IMG/VR virus record: IMGVR_UViG_3300001750_000005
Strand: one strand, 5' to 3'
Length of the DNA: 64,000 bases
DNA from: a virus
The translations under genes and the position numbers were made by a program. The notes beneath the pieces were generated by a model, which was given only the letters and a program-made list of their open reading frames with translations, was not told where the DNA came from and did no database searches. The number at the start of each line of letters is the position of its first letter. The first letter of the stretch is position 1. Below are positions 5,221 through 64,000 of the stretch, in pieces.

Positions 5221-5595
5221 ATGTCTCAACAAGGTGAAGAGATGAACGGACGCAGAGAGATAGATAAGGATACGCCTAGAAAGAATCTAGCGTTATATGC
5301 AACGATATCAATACAAGCTCTGGCTTTAGCTGTTACGTTTGGATATAAAGCTAACGACATTGATAAAATATTGGAGAACGATAGACGGCAAGATATGGAA
5401 ATAAAGGCTGTCGTTACTATTATTGCAGAAAAACATTATGACAAAACAGAACTTGATAGGTTTGTTATTAATCCATTTAAAGATGAAATGAAGGAACTAC
5501 AAGGAGCTATACGAGAAGTAGGGAAAAGTGTAAATCAGATACGAAACACTCAATATAAGTTTATTTCAGAATATCATATAAAAGCACGACAATGA
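5221..5595 (+). CDS. Single-pass membrane protein with coiled-coil tail (holin-like candidate)
   Basis: One hydrophobic segment LALYATISIQALALAVTFGY; last gene of the late operon. Confidence 0.45.
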   Translation: MSQQGEEMNGRREIDKDTPRKNLALYATISIQALALAVTFGYKANDIDKILENDRRQDMEIKAVVTIIAEKHYDKTELDRFVINPFKDEMKELQGAIREVGKSVNQIRNTQYKFISEYHIKARQ

Positions 5596-5703: not shown

Positions 5704-5982
5704 TTAATCAGTTAACAATTTTAACCTTTTCTCCAACAATTCAATTTTACCTTTCAGTACTATTACTAACTCATTATCCGAATCGCCAGAGTCAATATAT
5801 TCTTTTAACGCTTCATAGTCAGTTATTAAATCGTTGATAATAGAATCAAAATCCTCTGCATTTTCAGACAATCTTTTCCTGTAATCACTCATTAATTTAA
5901 CCTCATCTTTATCTATTTGCGCATTCATAAAATCAAAGAATCCTGGTGTTCTATTGCAAGATTTTAATTCATTCCTCATCAC
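5704..5982 (-). CDS. Hypothetical protein
   Basis: 92 aa, translationally coupled within the leftward early operon. Confidence 0.7.
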   Translation of the reverse strand: MMRNELKSCNRTPGFFDFMNAQIDKDEVKLMSDYRKRLSENAEDFDSIINDLITDYEALKEYIDSGDSDNELVIVLKGKIELLEKRLKLLTD

Positions 5983-6290
5983 TCCTCCCTAATTGCCTTA
6001 GCTATAATTCCGGATAATTCATAATCACTTGCATCACAAACAAAAACGCCATGGCATATATTCTCTGCTATCTCCGCATCTTTCTCCTGCTGCTCCAGTC
6101 TTGCCTGTTCTATTAATGCGTTCACATAGTCAATTTCATTATTATGTTTAACTGCATTTTTTATATTCACGTTATCACTCCAAACCTTAAATAAATACGC
6201 TTTTACTTCCTTCTCTCTCTGACCTCTATGCACCCATCCTATCCCCCAGCCAAGAAAGAGACCTAGTGAGAAGATAAGGATGTAGATCAT
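5979..6290 (-). CDS. Hypothetical protein with N-terminal membrane anchor
   Basis: MIYILIFSLGLFLGWGIGW hydrophobic start; coupled stop/start. Confidence 0.7.
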   Translation of the reverse strand: MIYILIFSLGLFLGWGIGWVHRGQREKEVKAYLFKVWSDNVNIKNAVKHNNEIDYVNALIEQARLEQQEKDAEIAENICHGVFVCDASDYELSGIIAKAIREE

Positions 6291-21398: not shown

Positions 21399-21742
21399 AA
21401 GACGAATCTATGAAAGAATTAAATAAAATGATAAGGGCATTTATTAATGATAATCATGGGAAAATAATCACTCATGCAGGAATGACTTATAAACTAAGAG
21501 TTCTTGCACAGAGGGCAATGAAATATCAGTTTGACAAAGGCAGATCATTTGGAATGAAGGCGCGCAAAAATATAAGCAAGATTCCTAGATTTTATACTTT
21601 AAAAGACCTATCCGAAGAATTTGATAGAAACTTGAGTACGGTATATACGAGATTAGGATCCGGCCTAACTTTGAGAGAAGCATTAACGCGGCCTGTTGAG
21701 CCAAAAGACCATGAAGAAAAAAGGGTTTATTATGGAGACTAG
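21395..21742 (+). CDS. Putative DNA-binding protein
   Basis: C-terminal TLKDLSEEFDRNLSTVYTRLGSGLTLREALTRP is HTH-like. Confidence 0.5.
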   Translation: MKDESMKELNKMIRAFINDNHGKIITHAGMTYKLRVLAQRAMKYQFDKGRSFGMKARKNISKIPRFYTLKDLSEEFDRNLSTVYTRLGSGLTLREALTRPVEPKDHEEKRVYYGD

Positions 21743-22292
21743 AGAACCTTCAACACATTTAAACAGAGGGAAGAAGCCTGACGACAAATTAGAGCGAATA
21801 TTAGAGCCGTGGGGGCTCTATCGGCAAAAGGGTGTCGATGGGCTTAGCTCTAAAAGAAAGTCACCCCTAGAGGGTTTCAATTGCCTTGAAACAGAGTTAA
21901 CAGATCATATAGACAAAAAGAGAAAAGCGACAATACGTGAAAATTTAATAGAAATTGGATATGGGAAAAAGAATCTTAATTATTGGGTGGAATTTTTTTA
22001 TAAGATATGGAAGTATGGAATTTATGAGTTAAAATTCCCAAAAGAGACTTTGTCAGCCAAACCATCAAATCCTTTGTATAACGGTGACAAGAGATATTCA
22101 AAAATAAATATAATACTATCATCCATTAATAGTCATTATTATAATATTCTAATACAGAAATATGAAAACTTATGGGAAATAAGGGATTTTCAGATAAATT
22201 GGGGATGGTCAGGAAGCGTTGCCAGAAATAAGTTAAAAAGGGCGAGGGCAGCAGCCAAAAAAGCATTGCGGGAAAATGGATATAAAGTTTGA
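21696..22292 (+). CDS. Putative Q-like late antiterminator/activator
   Basis: Last early gene, LERILEPWG motif (compare LExWG of Q-type proteins), basic C-terminal helix; its stop codon overlaps a strong promoter, as for lambda Q/pR'. Confidence 0.5.
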   Translation: MSQKTMKKKGFIMETREPSTHLNRGKKPDDKLERILEPWGLYRQKGVDGLSSKRKSPLEGFNCLETELTDHIDKKRKATIRENLIEIGYGKKNLNYWVEFFYKIWKYGIYELKFPKETLSAKPSNPLYNGDKRYSKINIILSSINSHYYNILIQKYENLWEIRDFQINWGWSGSVARNKLKRARAAAKKALRENGYKV

Positions 22293-22317
22293 CAAAAACG
22301 TTATATAGAGCTATATT
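22289..22317 (+). promoter_or_regulatory. Strong sigma70 promoter (pR'-like)
   Basis: TTGACA-17 nt-TATATT. Confidence 0.85.
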
Positions 22318-22323
22318 TTCATT

Positions 22324-23505
22324 AGAATTTCCATTCCTGCCTGGGAAATTGTTAGCCGGTGAGATCGTTTACAGCCAATTGTACGATTAAGTCTCAGAAG
22401 TACGGCGTTTTATTCAACTTTACGAAACAATCGTAAAGTAGTACAGAGTTTGATGTTGTGGCGGAAGTTGCGGAATAGCTCACAGGACGCCATTTTAGGA
22501 ACAATGCAGGTTGGTGACCGCTTTAAAAGATGGTATAGCGAACTGTGACGGCACTTGATAGGCCAACGATATCAAGCCAACATCAAATACCCTAAGGATT
22601 GCGGATACGCGGTCGGGTGGGTTGCGAAGGTAAAGCTTCGCTTTGAGTCCCTGCCTCAGTAGTTTGTAGGGTGGAGGCGGCGGTAAAGCGCGCCAATTGA
22701 GGTACCAATGGTTAAATGTCAAAACGGTTAAAATCCGTAGACAGCCTTGACCGTCAAGCCCGGCGGTATATAAACGGGTATGATGTTATTATGTTCCCCG
22801 GTAAACTAGCTGCGATTTGTCATCGCATTGATGGGATAACATAATAGGTAGGATTAATCCATTAACATCAAACCTGACCCCGATGGTATACGGGGAACTA
22901 ACAACCAAAGAGAAAGGCCCTGATCCGGGGCGGAGCAGCTAGGGCCTCCAACCCTAGGGAGAGAGCAGAAAGGCACCTGTCTCCACTGTTCTAAGAAGGC
23001 TATGTGGAAATAGCTGGATTGGGACAGAGGATAATATTTAATTCACAGCATATGTGGTAACAAGTTTTTATATTGCGTACTGAGTCCCGTTACATAGTAC
23101 GCCTAGCGTGAGAAACCTATGGTTAATATAAAATATCCACCGTTGAGATAAAACGCGCAGCAGGTAATGACCGGAGAGTAATCGTCCGGGGCTAAAATAT
23201 CTCTGTAATACGGTGGACCTTAACCCTGATAGTCGTTACCTCGGTCGAGCTATCAGCGGTAACAACCGAGGGCGGAATAGCTTCCAGAGACAAAAGCCAC
23301 GTTGGTGAGAGGCCAAGACTCCACCGTAGGGTAATCCGGGCTAGCATAGCCAGTTGCTCTACGGTGGACCTTTTAAAACCGCTCAAGCCTCTATCAAAAG
23401 TGTAGGTATCGAAAAGCCTTGCTTGTAAGCTTGAGCGGTAATTTTTACTCCCGGACCCATTAAAATACTTCTCCTGTGACTAAAGTTTGGGTTCCGGGTA
23501 AAAAT
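22324..23505 (+). ncRNA. Candidate giant structured non-coding RNA (about 1.1-1.2 kb)
   Basis: No credible plus-strand ORF; GC-richer than its flanks. More than 20 helices found by eye, including tttgatgtt/aacatcaaa (22449/22579), attatgtt/aacataat, ttttatatt/aatataaaa, tccaccgt/acggtgga twice, and accgctcaagc/gcttgagcggt. Confidence 0.7.
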
Positions 23506-23549
23506 TATGGATTATACGGCATAATTCTCCAATCAAAGAGCCAACCAAA

Positions 23550-23570
23550 GCCGTAATTTTTTCTTACGGC
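23550..23570. terminator. Hairpin at the convergence of the RNA and the leftward operon (possible terminator)
   Basis: gccgtaa-ttttttc-ttacggc; followed by a T-rich stretch on the minus strand. Confidence 0.4.
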
Positions 23571-23707
23571 GATATAGTACTTAGCATCACCTTGTGCTTT
23601 TTTCATGTCATTAATTGATGTGATATAGACTGTTTTCCAAGTCCCAAAATATTTAAGTTTTCTTTGCACTTGTAAAGCCATTTTATTACTCCTATGTAAT
23701 TCATCTT

Positions 23708-24418
23708 TTAGATATAGTTGGATACATCATTGTATATTTCGATAAAATTTGTTTTATCAGCAGTATAAGCAGCACGAGCAGCACGAGCAGCACGAATAGC
23801 ATCAGCAGCACTAACAGCAGCACGAGCAGCACGAACAGCAGTACGAGCAGTATAAGCAGCATCAGCAGCACGAGCAGCAGCATCAGCAGCACGAATAGCA
23901 CGAACAGTATCAGCAGCACGAACAGCAGCACGAGCAGCACGAACAGCAGCAGCATAAGAACGATGATTATTATCACAAACATAATAAATATAAGAAGCAC
24001 AATCTTCTTTTGATATTACTTTATTGTTTAGATAATCATTTGACCATTTATCCCATGCCTCGATTGGATTAAGCAGTAAATGGCTGACGGATTTAGCGCA
24101 TAAAATTGCAAAAACTATTTTTTCCCGCTGTGTGATATTAGGCAAAGTTACTAGCTCTAAAGGTGTTTGCCATTTACTCCCTATTTTCAGTCCATCGTCA
24201 GCAACGATGTCGCACTCAATTTTAACAAGTAACGGATTCTTATATTCGGCGTGGATAGGGTTAAAGATAACAGCCAGTTCTGGTGATTTATAGGCATGAA
24301 ATACCTGGTCAGAACAAAGTTCATTGCCGCGAATATCAATGGTTTCTTTTTTCCCTATTTCCCATTTAAACCCTTTATGGGTTGTGAAATCTTGATTCAT
24401 TAATTTATAAGCGATCAT
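23708..24418 (-). CDS. Phage protein with conserved N-terminal domain (DUF7666-like) and Ala/Arg low-complexity C-terminus
   Basis: AYKLMNQDFTTHKGFKWEIGK...LCSDQVFHAY N-terminus; about 65 aa of AAR/AAD-type repeats. Confidence 0.75.
   Translation of the reverse strand: MIAYKLMNQDFTTHKGFKWEIGKKETIDIRGNELCSDQVFHAYKSPELAVIFNPIHAEYKNPLLVKIECDIVADDGLKIGSKWQTPLELVTLPNITQREKIVFAILCAKSVSHLLLNPIEAWDKWSNDYLNNKVISKEDCASYIYYVCDNNHRSYAAAVRAARAAVRAADTVRAIRAADAAARAADAAYTARTAVRAARAAVSAADAIRAARAARAAYTADKTNFIEIYNDVSNYI
23760..23956. repeat. Imperfect 9-mer (GCAGCACGA)/GCA microsatellite-like coding repeat
   Basis: gcagcacgagcagcacgagcagcacgaatagcatcagcagc... read directly. Confidence 0.9.
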
Positions 24419-24581
24419 ATTACCTCCAACTGGTTAATTGATCTGTTGTAATCCATTTAGCAATCCACAAATCAATGACAAACGAATGCCATGATCTGTC
24501 TGATTCTTTCCAAAGTTTAAGTGCTTCGTGTTTAGTCATTGGATAGAGATCCAAACTGATCCACCAAATTCATTAATGTTC

Positions 24582-24788
24582 CTACAATTTAGTTTTAAGC
24601 AATTCAAGCACATCGTCCGGTATCGGCATAGTCTGTCCTTTGCTTAACCATCCTTCTACTGTTCTTGTAGATCTTGGTTTGCCGTCTCTAGGGAGAGCAT
24701 CGGCGATGATCTGCTTAGCCTCTTCACGACTAGATCCACAGTCTATAATATCCTGTACAATGGCCTGTAATTCAGTGAGATTTGACAC
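24582..24788 (-). CDS. Small HTH-like protein
   Basis: SREEAKQIIADAL...STRTVEGWLSKG...IPDDVLELLK. Confidence 0.55.
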   Translation of the reverse strand: MSNLTELQAIVQDIIDCGSSREEAKQIIADALPRDGKPRSTRTVEGWLSKGQTMPIPDDVLELLKTKL

Positions 24789-24811
24789 TACGTAGCTCCT
24801 TAAAATATGCT

Positions 24812-25195
24812 TCAGAATTTAAGTTCAAGATTAAGTACTTCACCAAACCACGCAATAGATACATGTTTAGTAAGGTCGTATTCAACAGCAATTAACGGAA
24901 TAATAGAGGTGTCTGAGCCTTTGCCAACGTCTTTACCGTGTAGCTTGTATCCACTAATAACACCTGCTCCAAGACGCAGCCTAGAGTTAACGTGAGCCAA
25001 ACCAACCGCATAAAACGAAGGCCTATGATAAGAATTGTATAACCCTCCTGCCCTGAAATTAGGCGTAAAATCGTAAGCAATACCAGGGTTAATATTGTTA
25101 AGCCCAGTAGTTTTAAGATGATCTGACACTGTGTGTACAGTCCAATCAGCCTGGACACTGGAAGAAAGAAGAAGCAAAAATATTGTTGTTTTCAT
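24812..25195 (-). CDS. Secreted outer-membrane beta-barrel protein, PagP-like
   Basis: Signal peptide MKTTIFLLLLSSSVQA; SDH, NNINPG, GGLYNSYHRPSFYA and GVISGY motifs; C-terminal LELKF with terminal Phe. Confidence 0.6.
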   Translation of the reverse strand: MKTTIFLLLLSSSVQADWTVHTVSDHLKTTGLNNINPGIAYDFTPNFRAGGLYNSYHRPSFYAVGLAHVNSRLRLGAGVISGYKLHGKDVGKGSDTSIIPLIAVEYDLTKHVSIAWFGEVLNLELKF

Positions 25196-25785
25196 TGTAT
25201 TTTCCTTTTTATTGCTTTGATTAATGTTTCGGCAGATACGCCACGGTTCTTGGCATATCGAGAAGCCGCGAAAATTCCCCATTGTTTAACGTGTTTAGCA
25301 GCATATAGGGCATAATCCTGTTTAGTAATCATTTTTCACCTTCAGACCATATTTAGAGCCCTCAACAGAGAGAAAATCTAATAAGACTGGGATACTTTCT
25401 TCGTTTATATCAAGCCATTTTGTTTGCCTGTCTTGTGATATCAACTTTATCTTAACAGGACCAAGGCCGAGGATATTTTCAATTTCATTATCGTAGTACA
25501 TAATTAATCTCCATATTATTCAATTGAGTAATATAACTATAAAGAAATTACCCTTATTTCATCATTAGGATAGAAAATATTAGCAACATCGGTAGCCGCT
25601 AAACGTGTTTCGTACAGCTTGGGAAAGCCTTTCGGACAAACCGACACCCATGATTCACGTCTTTGTAAATCTACCCACTCACAGATCTTAATTTGTATTT
25701 TGTACATGATCAAAACTCACTTTAAAATTCCAGTTTTAATATAATGATTGCCGCCGCACCAATAGCAACAATATACAGGCCGATG

Positions 25786-25989
25786 TTACGCATTAAGCGT
25801 TACCTTACTAGAATCACTTCTTCCGTGTCCTGACATATCATATGTATGATGATCGGCACTAGGATCTGACAAATTATGGCGAGCACAGTACTTAACAAGC
25901 GATTCTGTTTTCCAATGACCACGCAAAGAATGAGCAATTAATTCACCGTCACGGCGTCCACAAACAGTCGTAAATTTGTAATAAGACAT
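25786..25989 (-). CDS. Hypothetical protein (leftward accessory operon)
   Basis: RBS gaggtt, 67 aa. Confidence 0.6.
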   Translation of the reverse strand: MSYYKFTTVCGRRDGELIAHSLRGHWKTESLVKYCARHNLSDPSADHHTYDMSGHGRSDSSKVTLNA

Positions 25990-25996
25990 AATAACC

Positions 25997-26185
25997 TCAC
26001 AAAGTAATGTTGTTAGCTAATTTATCGGATATGAACCCGTCACGATTCATTGATTCGACGAATACGGAGAAGTCGAAGCGAATATCCGGATTGTAATCGT
26101 TATGTGTCGATGTCCAGCCAGAAAAACCAGACCATTGCCTAGATAGCCAGAAAGCGCGACGAACTTGATTAATTGTTGTGTACAT
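25997..26185 (-). CDS. Hypothetical protein (leftward accessory operon)
   Basis: RBS aaggag. Confidence 0.65.
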   Translation of the reverse strand: MYTTINQVRRAFWLSRQWSGFSGWTSTHNDYNPDIRFDFSVFVESMNRDGFISDKLANNITL

Positions 26186-26196
26186 GATTAATCTCC

Positions 26197-26400
26197 TTAT
26201 TTGTATGGTTGATCCCTAAATCCACAGGTATAATCAGGTATCTGATATTGACCAAGTGGCTTAATTGGCTGTAATCCATTTTTAACTCCATCGTAAAGCT
26301 TTTGAACTGCCTCTGATTCAGTATTGACGCCACAAACAAGGTATTCAGATGCAGGGCGCGCGTGAGTTTCTTTTAAAGCCGTATAAACGTGGTAATTCAT
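26197..26400 (-). CDS. Hypothetical protein (leftward accessory operon)
   Basis: RBS agagga. Confidence 0.6.
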   Translation of the reverse strand: MNYHVYTALKETHARPASEYLVCGVNTESEAVQKLYDGVKNGLQPIKPLGQYQIPDYTCGFRDQPYK

Positions 26401-26427
26401 AACTAAAATCCTCTTATGTTGTATGGT

Positions 26428-26637
26428 TTACATGTTTTGTTTTACAATCTTCCAGTCAGTTATTGAAAGACGGGTGCTACTCATTGCTTGATCTCCTTTT
26501 AATAAGGCGTCGTTTCTCTCTAGCCAGAAAGGTGCTGCATAGCCATGCGTAAAGCACCTATCAACATTAGGATTATAAGGACGGTATTTACGCGCCCCTT
26601 TGCGTTTAACATATATCCGGTAGATAAACATAATCAT
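26428..26637 (-). CDS. Hypothetical protein, first gene of the leftward accessory operon
   Basis: GGAGG RBS directly after the promoter. Confidence 0.65.
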   Translation of the reverse strand: MIMFIYRIYVKRKGARKYRPYNPNVDRCFTHGYAAPFWLERNDALLKGDQAMSSTRLSITDWKIVKQNM

Positions 26638-26657
26638 TTCCTCCAGTAGTTAACTAA

Positions 26658-26686
26658 ATATTAGTCTATGAGTTGTAGGATTACAA
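26658..26686 (-). promoter_or_regulatory. Leftward sigma70 promoter of the accessory operon
   Basis: Minus strand TTGTAA-17 nt-TAATAT, then GGAGG and ATG. Confidence 0.7.
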
Positions 26687-26716
26687 GTACTATTGCCAAT
26701 TAAAATCGAGAAATAA

Positions 26717-27052
26717 ATGGAATACACAGTAACTCACAACAGACAGCAACAAATCAGGCGGATGGTCTCATTTGAAGACCAAGTAGAGCTGGTAACAACA
26801 GACTACACCCCCTGGGTAGACTCAAATGGGTCAGTAACAGTAGTAACGGTAACAGTAAAATCAGGATCCGCGACAGTAGCCAACGAATCACTAGCCGCCA
26901 GCGTACATACAATGACAGTATCAACACAGCAAACAGGATCATCAGTAATACAGCTAAAAGCCACCGCGGGAAATAATGTACATGTATCAAACATATGCAT
27001 ACTAACAAAAGACCCAAACTACCCAGTATATGACTATGGTTACTACATTTAA
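26717..27052 (+). CDS. Small beta-rich (Ig-like) putative virion accessory protein
   Basis: T/V/S-rich alternating beta pattern, DYTPW motif; first rightward gene before terS. Confidence 0.5.
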   Translation: MEYTVTHNRQQQIRRMVSFEDQVELVTTDYTPWVDSNGSVTVVTVTVKSGSATVANESLAASVHTMTVSTQQTGSSVIQLKATAGNNVHVSNICILTKDPNYPVYDYGYYI

Positions 27053-27100
27053 CCATTAAGTTAAATATCTTACATATCAATTATCTATAGGTTAATAACA

Positions 27101-27475
27101 ATGCCATTCGTAAAAGGACAATCAGGAAACCCAGGTGGACTTAATTCTGCTGACCGTAATGCAATCGTAAAAATACGCAAAGGTATTGATTTAGCTATAA
27201 ATAAAATGAAGAATGGCAAGACAGTAGGCATCGTGGCATTCCAGGAAAAGATGGCAGAGTCTTTCGAAAATGACTTCTTAGCTACTCTAAAGGCTGTAGC
27301 GCCACTGTTACCCAAGGACATAACAATAGAGTCAGGCGCCTCAAGAAGCGCTGTACAGTACACAGACGACGAGCTGGCTGACATCATTGCTAGTCGTGCA
27401 CGTCAGAAACGTCTTGATAATCAGGTAGTTGAAGCAGAATACACAGAGATAAAGGACGAGAGAGTAACCAAGTAG
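27101..27475 (+). CDS. terS: Terminase small subunit
   Basis: MPFVKGQSGNPGG N-terminal motif and TDDELADI C-terminal motif; upstream of terL. Confidence 0.75.
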   Translation: MPFVKGQSGNPGGLNSADRNAIVKIRKGIDLAINKMKNGKTVGIVAFQEKMAESFENDFLATLKAVAPLLPKDITIESGASRSAVQYTDDELADIIASRARQKRLDNQVVEAEYTEIKDERVTK

Positions 27476-63088: not shown

Positions 63089-64000
63089 AGAATTTCCATT
63101 CCTGCCTGGGAAATTGTTAGCCGGTGAGATCGTTTACAGCCAATTGTACGATTAAGTCTCAGAAGTACGGCGTTTTATTCAACTTTACGAAACAATCGTA
63201 AAGTAGTACAGAGTTTGATGTTGTGGCGGAAGTTGCGGAATAGCTCACAGGACGCCATTTTAGGAACAATGCAGGTTGGTGACCGCTTTAAAAGATGGTA
63301 TAGCGAACTGTGACGGCACTTGATAGGCCAACGATATCAAGCCAACATCAAATACCCTAAGGATTGCGGATACGCGGTCGGGTGGGTTGCGAAGGTAAAG
63401 CTTCGCTTTGAGTCCCTGCCTCAGTAGTTTGTAGGGTGGAGGCGGCGGTAAAGCGCGCCAATTGAGGTACCAATGGTTAAATGTCAAAACGGTTAAAATC
63501 CGTAGACAGCCTTGACCGTCAAGCCCGGCGGTATATAAACGGGTATGATGTTATTATGTTCCCCGGTAAACTAGCTGCGATTTGTCATCGCATTGATGGG
63601 ATAACATAATAGGTAGGATTAATCCATTAACATCAAACCTGACCCCGATGGTATACGGGGAACTAACAACCAAAGAGAAAGGCCCTGATCCGGGGCGGAG
63701 CAGCTAGGGCCTCCAACCCTAGGGAGAGAGCAGAAAGGCACCTGTCTCCACTGTTCTAAGAAGGCTATGTGGAAATAGCTGGATTGGGACAGAGGATAAT
63801 ATTTAATTCACAGCATATGTGGTAACAAGTTTTTATATTGCGTACTGAGTCCCGTTACATAGTACGCCTAGCGTGAGAAACCTATGGTTAATATAAAATA
63901 TCCACCGTTGAGATAAAACGCGCAGCAGGTAATGACCGGAGAGTAATCGTCCGGGGCTAAAATATCTCTGTAATACGGTGGACCTTAACCCTGATAGTCG
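63089..64000 (+). ncRNA. Candidate giant structured RNA (copy, truncated by the window end)
   Basis: Same sequence as 22324-23235. Confidence 0.7.

Follow-up and report, generated by a model that had tools for sequence, protein, structure and literature searches.

A non-coding region on the + strand of a 64,000-nucleotide (nt) viral sequence (IMG/VR record IMGVR_UViG_3300001750_000005; this whole stretch is called the window below) is built at its 5' end like the late-gene switch of phage lambda, the PR' promoter under control of the antiterminator Q, and continues as a string of independently closed RNA modules that has no single fixed fold. The region, 22293-23504, is a member of a small RNA family that is absent from Rfam. 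We tentatively read it as a late transcript under antitermination control that bears structured-RNA cassettes, in the niche that islands of transfer RNA (tRNA) genes occupy in other lambdoid phages, a reading that we hold to be plausible and slightly short of probable. The window represents a circular lambda-like phage genome from a marine metagenome. This genome has 40,765 bp and fills the window 1.6 times, as every open reading frame (ORF) recurs at +40,765, and its products include a large terminase, a portal protein, a RuvC-like resolvase and an HNH endonuclease. Positions 1-23235 are repeated as 40766-64000, and the 5' part of the RNA region reappears at 63089-64000.

The assignment of the 5' end to the PR' type is drawn from the anatomy of its promoter, pause-like element and terminator. 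A sigma-70-type promoter lies on the + strand at 22289..22317, with a -35 hexamer TTGACA (22289-94), a 17-nt spacer and a -10 hexamer TATATT (22312-17), and it matches the consensus at 11 of 12 positions. Thirteen loci share this promoter position, with a -35 of the form TTGA(C/T/A), a 17-nt spacer and a -10 of the form TAnnnT. At 22323..22328 (+ strand, about -1..+5) stands a -10-like hexamer, TAGAAT, and every aligned locus has a second -10-like hexamer 4-6 nt past its -10 (TAGAAT in eight; TATAAT, TACAAT, TAGACT or TAATCT in the others). By comparison with Q-dependent promoters, this hexamer is a candidate sigma-dependent pause element (PMC9388147, PMC6606751). A GGTNA-like motif that recurs in the -35/-10 spacer of most relatives may be regarded only as a candidate Q-binding element. 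The start of the transcript would fold into a leader hairpin with a C/U-rich loop (22326..22350, + strand, from segment folding), whose stem varies yet stays paired among relatives (CCUC:GAGG, CCCU:AGGG, UCCC:GGGA, UUUCC:GGAAA) around a C-rich loop. It is followed by a tR'-like intrinsic terminator at 22355..22414 (+ strand; GCCG...CGGC with an inner helix and a U-run at 22408-11), which begins about 30 nt after the promoter and ends about 90 nt downstream of the start. In an alignment of ten loci the terminator is a GCCGG...CCGGC hairpin with a U-run in 10/10 and compensatory double changes in 7 of 11 consensus pairs; the window copy, with an outer helix of 4 bp and a run of 4 U, is weaker than those of its relatives. 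A preceding sequence-only reading had placed the region behind its own strong promoter. The promoter it named is real, near-consensus and kept in 13 loci, but it is a late promoter of PR' type with a conserved intrinsic terminator about 30 nt downstream. Because this conserved terminator sits just after the promoter, the long RNA should form mainly when the protein encoded at the Q position allows read-through.

The gene at the Q position (21732..22292, + strand) encodes 186 amino acids (aa) from its ATG, its ORF being open from a TTG at 21696, and its stop codon overlaps the -35 hexamer of the promoter, an overlap seen in 13 loci. The genes that precede it in the window and in its relatives are of nin-region type (NinG, YbcO, DUF551, RuvC-like resolvase). 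The regulator protein had no Pfam or PHROG match, and against PDB profiles it matched only sigma region 4, with E values of 0.03-0.7. Its C-terminal ~60 aa have a sigma region-4-like fold (sigma-4 domains scored Z 7-8 over about 65 aa in a fold search), and the sole match that spans most of the protein is the Q protein of phage 21 (6jnx_P; Z 7.2, 93 aa aligned, root-mean-square deviation 3.6), a weak match in a range that the tool flags. Gene position and promoter anatomy point to a putative Q, and the protein is probably a late regulator of a new, Q-like type that belongs to marine lambdoid phages.

The arrangement resembles the lambda switch of PR', 6S RNA and tR' with Q, and that of the StxS small RNA of Shiga toxin (Stx) phages, in several respects. 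In both, the regulator follows nin-type genes and a sigma-70 promoter comes directly after it, a -10-like element lies at the transcript start, an intrinsic terminator follows within about 100 nt, and a short terminated RNA and regulator-dependent read-through are implied (PMC9388147, PMC6606751, PMC7547250). In the known switch, loading of Q at its binding element and at the -10-like, sigma-dependent pause element lets polymerase pass the terminator (PMC9388147, PMC6606751), and without Q the PR' transcript ends early at tR' as a short RNA (PMC7547250). The regulator described here differs in that it has no Q-family sequence match and is only weakly like the phage 21 protein by fold. Furthermore, in lambda the lysis genes come after the tR' terminator, whereas here 0.3-1.4 kb of structured RNA comes next, and the window has no + strand gene behind it.

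The region between this switch and the downstream genes is non-coding. Each frame of 22293-23504 holds 16-29 stops, and all three kinds of stop codon occur in all six frames, which shows that the region is non-coding DNA and rules out a recoded gene. The longest ORFs within it are of 42 aa on the + strand and of 75 and 64 aa on the - strand, and none of these small proteins matched a Pfam or PHROG family. The region is flanked by the + strand ORF 21696-22292 upstream and by a - strand ORF ending at 23505 downstream, and its G+C content is 0.45-0.49 compared to about 0.33-0.42 in the flanks; raised G+C is also seen in the corresponding gaps of relatives. The + strand has a minimum free energy (MFE) of -395 kcal/mol compared to -347 +/- 10 in 40 dinucleotide shuffles (z -4.9), while the - strand reaches z -3.8. 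The strongest segments are 22417-39 (z -4.7), 23219-23376 (z -4.0) and 23376-23447 (z -4.7), and the remaining segments range from z +0.4 to -2.5. Among relatives, + strand folding is uneven, with z -4.5 in locus L043 and z -4.2 in L065. Several indicators agree on the + strand: the promoter, the U-runs and a tRNA in relative L044 are co-oriented, the z score is better on this strand, and the closing helices described below contain 4 G-U pairs against 1 A-C. Thus, the sequence-only claims of a transcribed strand without a credible ORF and of a structured non-coding RNA candidate on the + strand are borne out by the stops, the folding energy below shuffled controls, the homologues and the compensatory changes.

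The long-range helices listed in that reading are all present where it placed them, and most were also returned by a repeat search, which gave the pairs 22449-58/22578-87 (I12), 22777-88/22863-74 and 22787-95/22838-46 (I7 and I20), 23066-74/23125-33 (I21) and 23378-88/23429-39 (I9), together with TCCACCGT/ACGGTGGA (I2/I22) and the CTTTACGA hairpin (I16). One of them, ACCCTA 22589-94 with TAGGGT 22667-72, is disfavoured by comparison: several relatives lack the upstream partner, and the data agree better with a pseudoknot in which AGGG 22668-71 pairs with CCCU 22649-52.

Homologous regions were reached through the regulator gene, which has 19 homologues at 34-64% aa identity, all of them metagenomic. 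A gap without called genes, of 0.3-1.5 kb, lies directly after the homologous gene of 167-198 aa in every contig fetched (about 13 others). The comparison took in about 14 distinct loci, many of them partial, and some gaps extend to the contig end. The gap measures ~330 nt in L042 (after setting aside a called 57-aa ORF inside the homologous region), 523 nt in L043, 741 nt in L045, 745 nt in L061-63, 702 nt in L065, 1391 nt in L060, 1554 nt in L044 and ~1100 nt in L047/L051, and it runs to the contig end after 628 nt in L052, 599 nt in L064 and 204-354 nt in L053-58. In L044 an uncalled 74-aa ORF on the - strand at about 5930-6153 reduces the non-coding part to ~1.1 kb; by reading only, this ORF resembles a Cro/CI-type helix-turn-helix protein, and its overlap with a copy of the TCCACCGTAGAG motif is probably coincidental. 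Nhmmer and blastn comparison of the gaps with the window revealed patchy modules of 20-94 nt at 81-97% nt identity, always oriented as the upstream gene. Modules at 85-97% nt identity are better conserved than the flanking genes, which reach about 75% nt in their best stretches, with the regulator at about 50% aa.

Covariation among these homologues, which the sequence-only reading had made a test of its candidate, was found in the terminator, in a recurrent closing helix and in a pseudoknot. The closing helix, UUUGRYRUUG/CAAYRYCAAA (10 bp), occurs as 18 closures in 14 loci (11.2 kb), compared to 0.1 in shuffles, and encloses domains of 47-164 nt, of which the window holds domain 1 as well as variants at 22779-22872 and 23066-23133. 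Its central triplets change together (AUG:CAU, AUA:UAU, GCA:UGC, GUG:CAC), with different versions within one genome. The pseudoknot is of H type, UGAG-U-CCCUGC-CUCA-GUAGUUU-GUAGGG, at 22644..22671 (+ strand). Across seven loci 95.7% of its cells are paired, compared to 34-50% in slid controls, with compensatory changes in 4 of 10 pairs, and its covariation score of 0.362, against 0.173 in shuffles, was reached by 0 of 500 of them.

The modules differ in number, order and content among related phages, and none is common to all complete loci. Module F (23151-23197), which is 85% identical to L045, lies in the window inside a hairpin G and after the pseudoknot, while the L045 copy is enclosed in a UUUGAUAUCUG/CAGAAUCAAAU-closed domain ahead of the pseudoknot. 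Hairpin G (UCCACCGUAGAG...CUCUGUAGUACGGUGGA) has an almost invariant sequence and is present in two copies in the window, and a unit of a domain plus hairpin G is found in 6 loci. Hairpin D (CCUGA-CCCCG-loop-CGGGG-AACUAAC; 22873..22902, + strand) is shared by the window, L043, L044, L051 and L065, with an invariant stem and a loop of 8-12 nt. What follows hairpin D varies: 155 nt without a homologue in the window, 45 nt in L043, and in L044 a tRNA-Met that starts 6 nt downstream. The L044 region carries this tRNA-Met (50.6 bits) and a tRNA-like element (28.8 bits) directly after hairpins D and G, respectively. The tRNA-Met(CAT) at 5370-5443 has a C1 x A72 mismatch as in initiator tRNAs and an imperfect anticodon stem, and it resembles the tRNA-Met of other phages; the second element (5785-5846) is tRNA-Gly-like, with a canonical T-arm and a UCC anticodon loop and without an acceptor stem. 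No conserved helix links distant modules, and all supported helices are local. Thus, in place of the proposed succession of multibranch domains closed by long-range helices, we find independently closed modules whose order and number vary between phages.

The remainder of the RNA body in the window, all on the + strand, is built as follows. A hairpin ACUUUACGA / UCGUAAAGU at 22417..22439 (repeat search I16, z -4.7) precedes domain 1 at 22449..22587, which is closed by UUUGAUGUUG / CAACAUCAAA and was identified by the repeat search and the closing-helix scan. Upstream of the pseudoknot, the hairpin GCGAAG-GUAAAG-CUUCGC (22624..22641) lies in a stretch, 22619-22671, that is 91% identical to L045. 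A conserved segment at 22750..22793, 95% identical to L065 over 44 nt, leads into domain 2 (22779..22872), which is closed by UGAUGUU/AACAUCA and AUUAUGUU/AACAUAAU (repeat search I7, I13 and I20, and MFE) and whose inner part, 22803-22839, is 81% identical to L044. After hairpin D comes the variable insert (22903..23057), which has no homologue, contains the helices GGCCCU/AGGGCC and CUGUCUC/GGGACAG and has z -1.7. Domain 3 (23066..23133), closed by UUUUAUAUU/AAUAUAAAA around two inner hairpins, is 91.5% identical to L043 over 94 nt, and its closing helix shows a compensatory U-A to G-C change relative to the L043 homologue. It is followed by hairpin G1 (23136..23217; UCCACCGU..GAGAU ... AUCUC-UGUAA-UACGGUGGA), which encloses module F, by a segment without a homologue at 23219..23319 that combines block-wise complementarity (23226-23271) with the second GCGGAAUAG motif (D4, D9), and by hairpin G2 (23320..23368), the second copy of UCCACCGUAG...CUCUACGGUGGA (D7, I2), whose unbulged form matches the L042 copy.

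Some of these parts show further internal relationships. In 23226-23271 the three blocks CTGATAG, GTTACC and TCGGT recur as their complements without a change of order (A B C A' B' C'); the MFE structure uses mainly A/A', there is no homologue for comparison, and the blocks may form a set of alternative pairings. The motif GCGGAAUAG(C) occurs at 22470-22485 and 23272-23287 in the window and once in L065 (position 265 of the intergenic region), and short direct similarities (D4, D5, D6, D12, D13) link 22470-22590 to 23272-23400, which suggests an old internal duplication. Hairpin D, with its CCCCG-loop-CGGGG and AACUAAC, loosely recalls the repeat hairpins that we take to be typical of type I-E clustered regularly interspaced short palindromic repeats (CRISPR; CCCCGC..GCGGGG and AUAAACCG), so that it might conceivably mimic such a repeat.

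At the 3' end, a terminal hairpin whose 11-bp stem is perfect, with UAAUUUUU after it (23378..23446, + strand; repeat search I9, z -4.7) likely forms, with its U-run, the 3' end of a stand-alone RNA in the window, where it would act as a terminator. A terminator pattern scan did not call it because its loop is long. Overlapping it, a 3' element at 23439..23524 (+ strand) consists of a hairpin (23439-23507) with CCCAUUAAAA and CUCCU in its loop, followed by an ATG at 23507; it is homologous to an element immediately ahead of the first + strand gene that follows in L043, and L045 has a similar one. Only 5 codons follow this ATG in the window, while the aligned ATG in L043 starts a 187-aa ORF. 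Convergent - strand genes come next in the window, L042, L044, L060 and L065, and + strand genes come next in L043, L045 and L061-63; for these + strand genes neither a homologue in the window nor a family match was found. In the window ~3.9 kb of small - strand genes (23505-27400; DUF7666, a PagP-like protein and others) converge on the RNA, and antiterminated polymerase would transcribe antisense to this block. In L043 six + strand genes precede the homologous DUF7666 gene, which is 3 kb farther downstream.

The family could not be assigned to a known RNA class, as the sequence-only reading had anticipated, and its further suggestion of a GOLLD- or ROOL-like class found no match. Rfam 15 gave no match for the whole window at gathering scores or for 22100-23700 alone at E<=10. 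The GOLLD (RF01998) and ROOL (RF03087) covariance models matched neither the window region nor its relatives, even at E<=10 on short inputs, and the Rfam 15 models for OLE, HEARO/omega RNA, raiA, group I and II introns, RNase P, transfer-messenger RNA and ribosomal RNA (rRNA) likewise gave no match. Neither ARAGORN nor the Rfam tRNA model detected a tRNA in the window RNA. The statement that no tRNA lies nearby therefore stands for the window, but not for the family, as the homologous region of L044 shows. ARAGORN at 80% thresholds produced two poor candidates in the window, one per strand, which are unconvincing because neither has a canonical T-loop and neither is present in the homologous L065 segment. 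We also considered rRNA mimicry, as AGAGTTTGAT at 22445-54 recalls the 5' end of 16S rRNA; across six homologous regions (window and five relatives), only short, non-collinear, chance-level matches to E. coli 16S and 23S rRNA were found. Complementary targets of the GAGUCCC loop motif did not exceed chance.

Known large phage RNAs and tRNA islands share parts of this picture. GOLLD and ROOL lie near tRNA islands, GOLLD can hold tRNAs in its linker, one marine GOLLD member lies downstream of a Met-tRNA, and reported traits include expression that rises during lysis and a variable 5' half (10.1101/2024.12.08.627333). The window family resembles GOLLD as a large structured phage or prophage RNA with marine members, adjacent or internal tRNAs including Met-tRNA, lysis-tied expression, here expected from the switch, and a variable part. 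The phage location beside tRNAs that is often seen for GOLLD is found here in that the RNA lies in a phage genome and the homologous region of L044 contains tRNA-Met, while the window itself has none. It differs from GOLLD, whose covariance model it does not match, in having shuffled modules and no universally conserved 3' core. ROOL is likewise encoded by phages or prophages; it is several hundred nt long, contains pseudoknots, lies near tRNA islands and is of unknown function (10.1101/2024.12.08.627333; PMC5737381); however, its covariance model is unmatched, and ROOL comes from the rumen and Firmicutes, in contrast to a marine family without a fixed fold. The put RNA of phage HK022 is a structured RNA just after a phage promoter that acts on the transcribing polymerase (PMC9378689). 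Put is ~70 nt long, has two stem-loops and replaces a protein antiterminator, whereas the window family has a protein regulator alongside a modular RNA that is 10-20x longer. Lambdoid Stx phages such as 933W carry tRNA genes between the Q-dependent promoter/terminator and the late genes; the L044 tRNA-Met occupies that position, while the window and most relatives carry unclassified structured domains there.

Together, these observations lead us to favour an antitermination-gated transcript with structured-RNA cassettes. Without the Q-position protein, polymerase would halt at the terminator and yield a short RNA of ~90 nt. Once that protein loads at the pause, read-through would produce the long RNA in bulk, late in infection. 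This RNA, extending ~1.03 kb beyond the terminator, may be a cassette array or a polycistronic precursor of stable structured RNAs, in which the conserved hairpins D and G and the closing helices could serve as insulating or processing signals before variable cargo. The cargo RNAs might bind or decoy a host protein or RNA, or might support late translation. Both transcription and function are here inferred from the sequence. In a bolder version, which we think quite unlikely, the locus would be a new kind of RNA locus, a structured-RNA cassette array in which closing helices and spacer hairpins act as connectors for swapped, duplicated and reordered cargo, tRNAs included, with released or assembled modules acting in trans on host machinery late in infection.

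Several results weigh against the favoured explanation. The regulator has no Q-family sequence match, and its structural Z of 7.2 to phage 21 Q lies in the tool's unreliable range. L044, L051 and L065 lack the terminator or have none that can be recognised. L045, L061 and L052 fold no better than shuffles on the + strand (z +0.3 to -1.5). Roughly half of the window RNA (22459-22618, 22672-22749, 22903-23057 and 23223-23438) has no detectable homologue. Hairpins D and G and many stems are sequence-invariant and so give no covariation signal, and their conservation might come from recent exchange of DNA segments as readily as from selection on the RNA. Among public runs with the sequence no RNA run is listed; the sole match is a marine DNA metagenome, probably the source. 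Finally, processing into separate RNAs is wholly our supposition.

The region could instead be a cis-acting long 5' leader of the late operon without a role in trans, the window copy being a leftover after loss of the downstream genes, and this we consider unlikely. Such a leader might protect late mRNA from RNases, promote processive antitermination or, through its 3' element, control translation of the first late gene. It would account for the relatives in which the region runs directly into + strand genes and for the CUCCU-loop 3' element, which ends at the start codon of the first L043 gene and of which the window keeps the ATG with its 5 codons, and the HK022 put RNA shows that a structured RNA made directly downstream of a phage promoter can act on polymerase (PMC9378689). 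However, five loci keep 0.3-1.4 kb of the region before convergent - strand genes, and retention of the RNA with no following + strand gene (window, L042, L044, L060, L065) argues against a purely cis-acting leader. Furthermore, a five-fold size range and module shuffling would be odd for a leader with a single job, an embedded tRNA has no leader function, Rfam returned no match, and a quick look for a boxA-like sequence was unconvincing. We regard as rather improbable that the region is a functionless mosaic at a recombination hot spot downstream of a late promoter, made of decayed tRNA genes, terminators of lost morons and exchanged segments. Its high identity would then reflect recent horizontal exchange, in keeping with patchy homology and sharp module borders, and the decayed L044 tRNA-like element without an acceptor stem, the half of the window region that has no homologue, the three relatives that fold no better than shuffles and the frequent breaks of relatives' contigs inside the region fit as well. 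Yet compensatory changes in the terminator, closing helices and pseudoknot indicate selection for pairing, the modules are 85-97% identical where flanking genes show about 75% nt and about 50% aa identity, and the gap is present in all relatives with raised G+C.

A hair less credible still is the interpretation offered in the sequence-only reading, a single large ornate RNA with a global fold that would be a functional analogue of GOLLD and ROOL, perhaps forming RNA-only multimers. The RNA is large, phage-encoded and marine, late expression is expected and L044 links it to tRNA-Met, all traits reported for GOLLD and ROOL (10.1101/2024.12.08.627333); its whole-length z is -4.9, and identical closing-helix sequences, being repeated, could in principle exchange partners from one molecule to another. 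These points are set against covariance models that stay unmatched even at permissive thresholds, the lack of any module shared by all complete loci, the varying module order, and supported helices that are all local, with no conserved long-range helix between modules. A DNA-level element, be it a site for packaging, an origin of replication or a set of inverted repeats bound by protein, would explain the many 10-bp inverted repeats of one sequence family and the position of the L045 region directly upstream of packaging genes, but seems very improbable to us. Both repeat arms change together while pairs within one genome differ (GCA, AUA and AUG closures in L052), which points to base pairing and not to the binding site of one protein; in addition, the arms are spaced by anything between 29 and about 145 nt, the G-U pairs speak for one strand, and the window region lies 5.4 kb from terL.

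Wider searches returned no further members. Starting from the terminase, we obtained 13 IMG/VR loci that share the structural module, none of which has the RNA or the Q-position gene; the gene directly upstream of the RNA proved the useful handle for homologues. A blind motif scan with GCGGAATAGCTYMCAG gave 28 chance matches. The closing-helix pattern alone had at least 120 matches in IMG/VR, and since none of these has other modules or blastn similarity, the pattern is not diagnostic by itself. Within the window the closing-helix motif occurs only once outside the RNA region, which speaks against a miniature inverted-repeat transposable element spread through the genome. Patterns for hairpin D, hairpin G and the pseudoknot, run against IMG/VR, JGI metagenomes and GTDB genomes, retrieved only two contigs that were already known; scans with the regulator protein retrieved only an already known contig among viruses and no prophage among GTDB genomes. 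Among cultured phages, the RNA regions of the window, L044, L051 and L060 were unmatched except for the tRNA-Met, and the regulator protein was unmatched. Many relatives' contigs (L052, L053-L056, L057, L058, L064) end inside the RNA region, and the family may be under-sampled in assemblies, since shared modules would tangle metagenome assembly graphs. A separate observation concerns the terminase relatives: in L002 (9199-10001) and L003 (3707-4509), IMG/VR relatives with about 79% identical terminase, ~800 bp interrupt the large-terminase gene between residues ~199 and ~200 in window protein numbering, probably an insertion of intron or intein type. The best terminase matches among cultured phages, in Brucella phages, are likewise in two pieces and adjoin an HNH endonuclease gene.

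Only a handful of large structured RNAs are known from phages, and what they do is still open. In the family described here the expression logic can be read from sequence, and the antiterminator-type switch directly before the RNA provides a simple experimental handle. The family also supplies a compact pseudoknot motif supported by covariation and, probably, a Q-like late regulator of a new type from lambdoid phages of marine origin. If the locus were a cassette array of the bolder kind, it would be an RNA counterpart of gene-cassette systems, whose modules might serve as decoys for host defence or RNA-binding proteins or as RNA-only assemblies. The modular build and the L044 tRNA tie the family to the late, tRNA-adjacent niche of GOLLD and ROOL, from which it differs in architecture, and this contrast may show what that niche is for.

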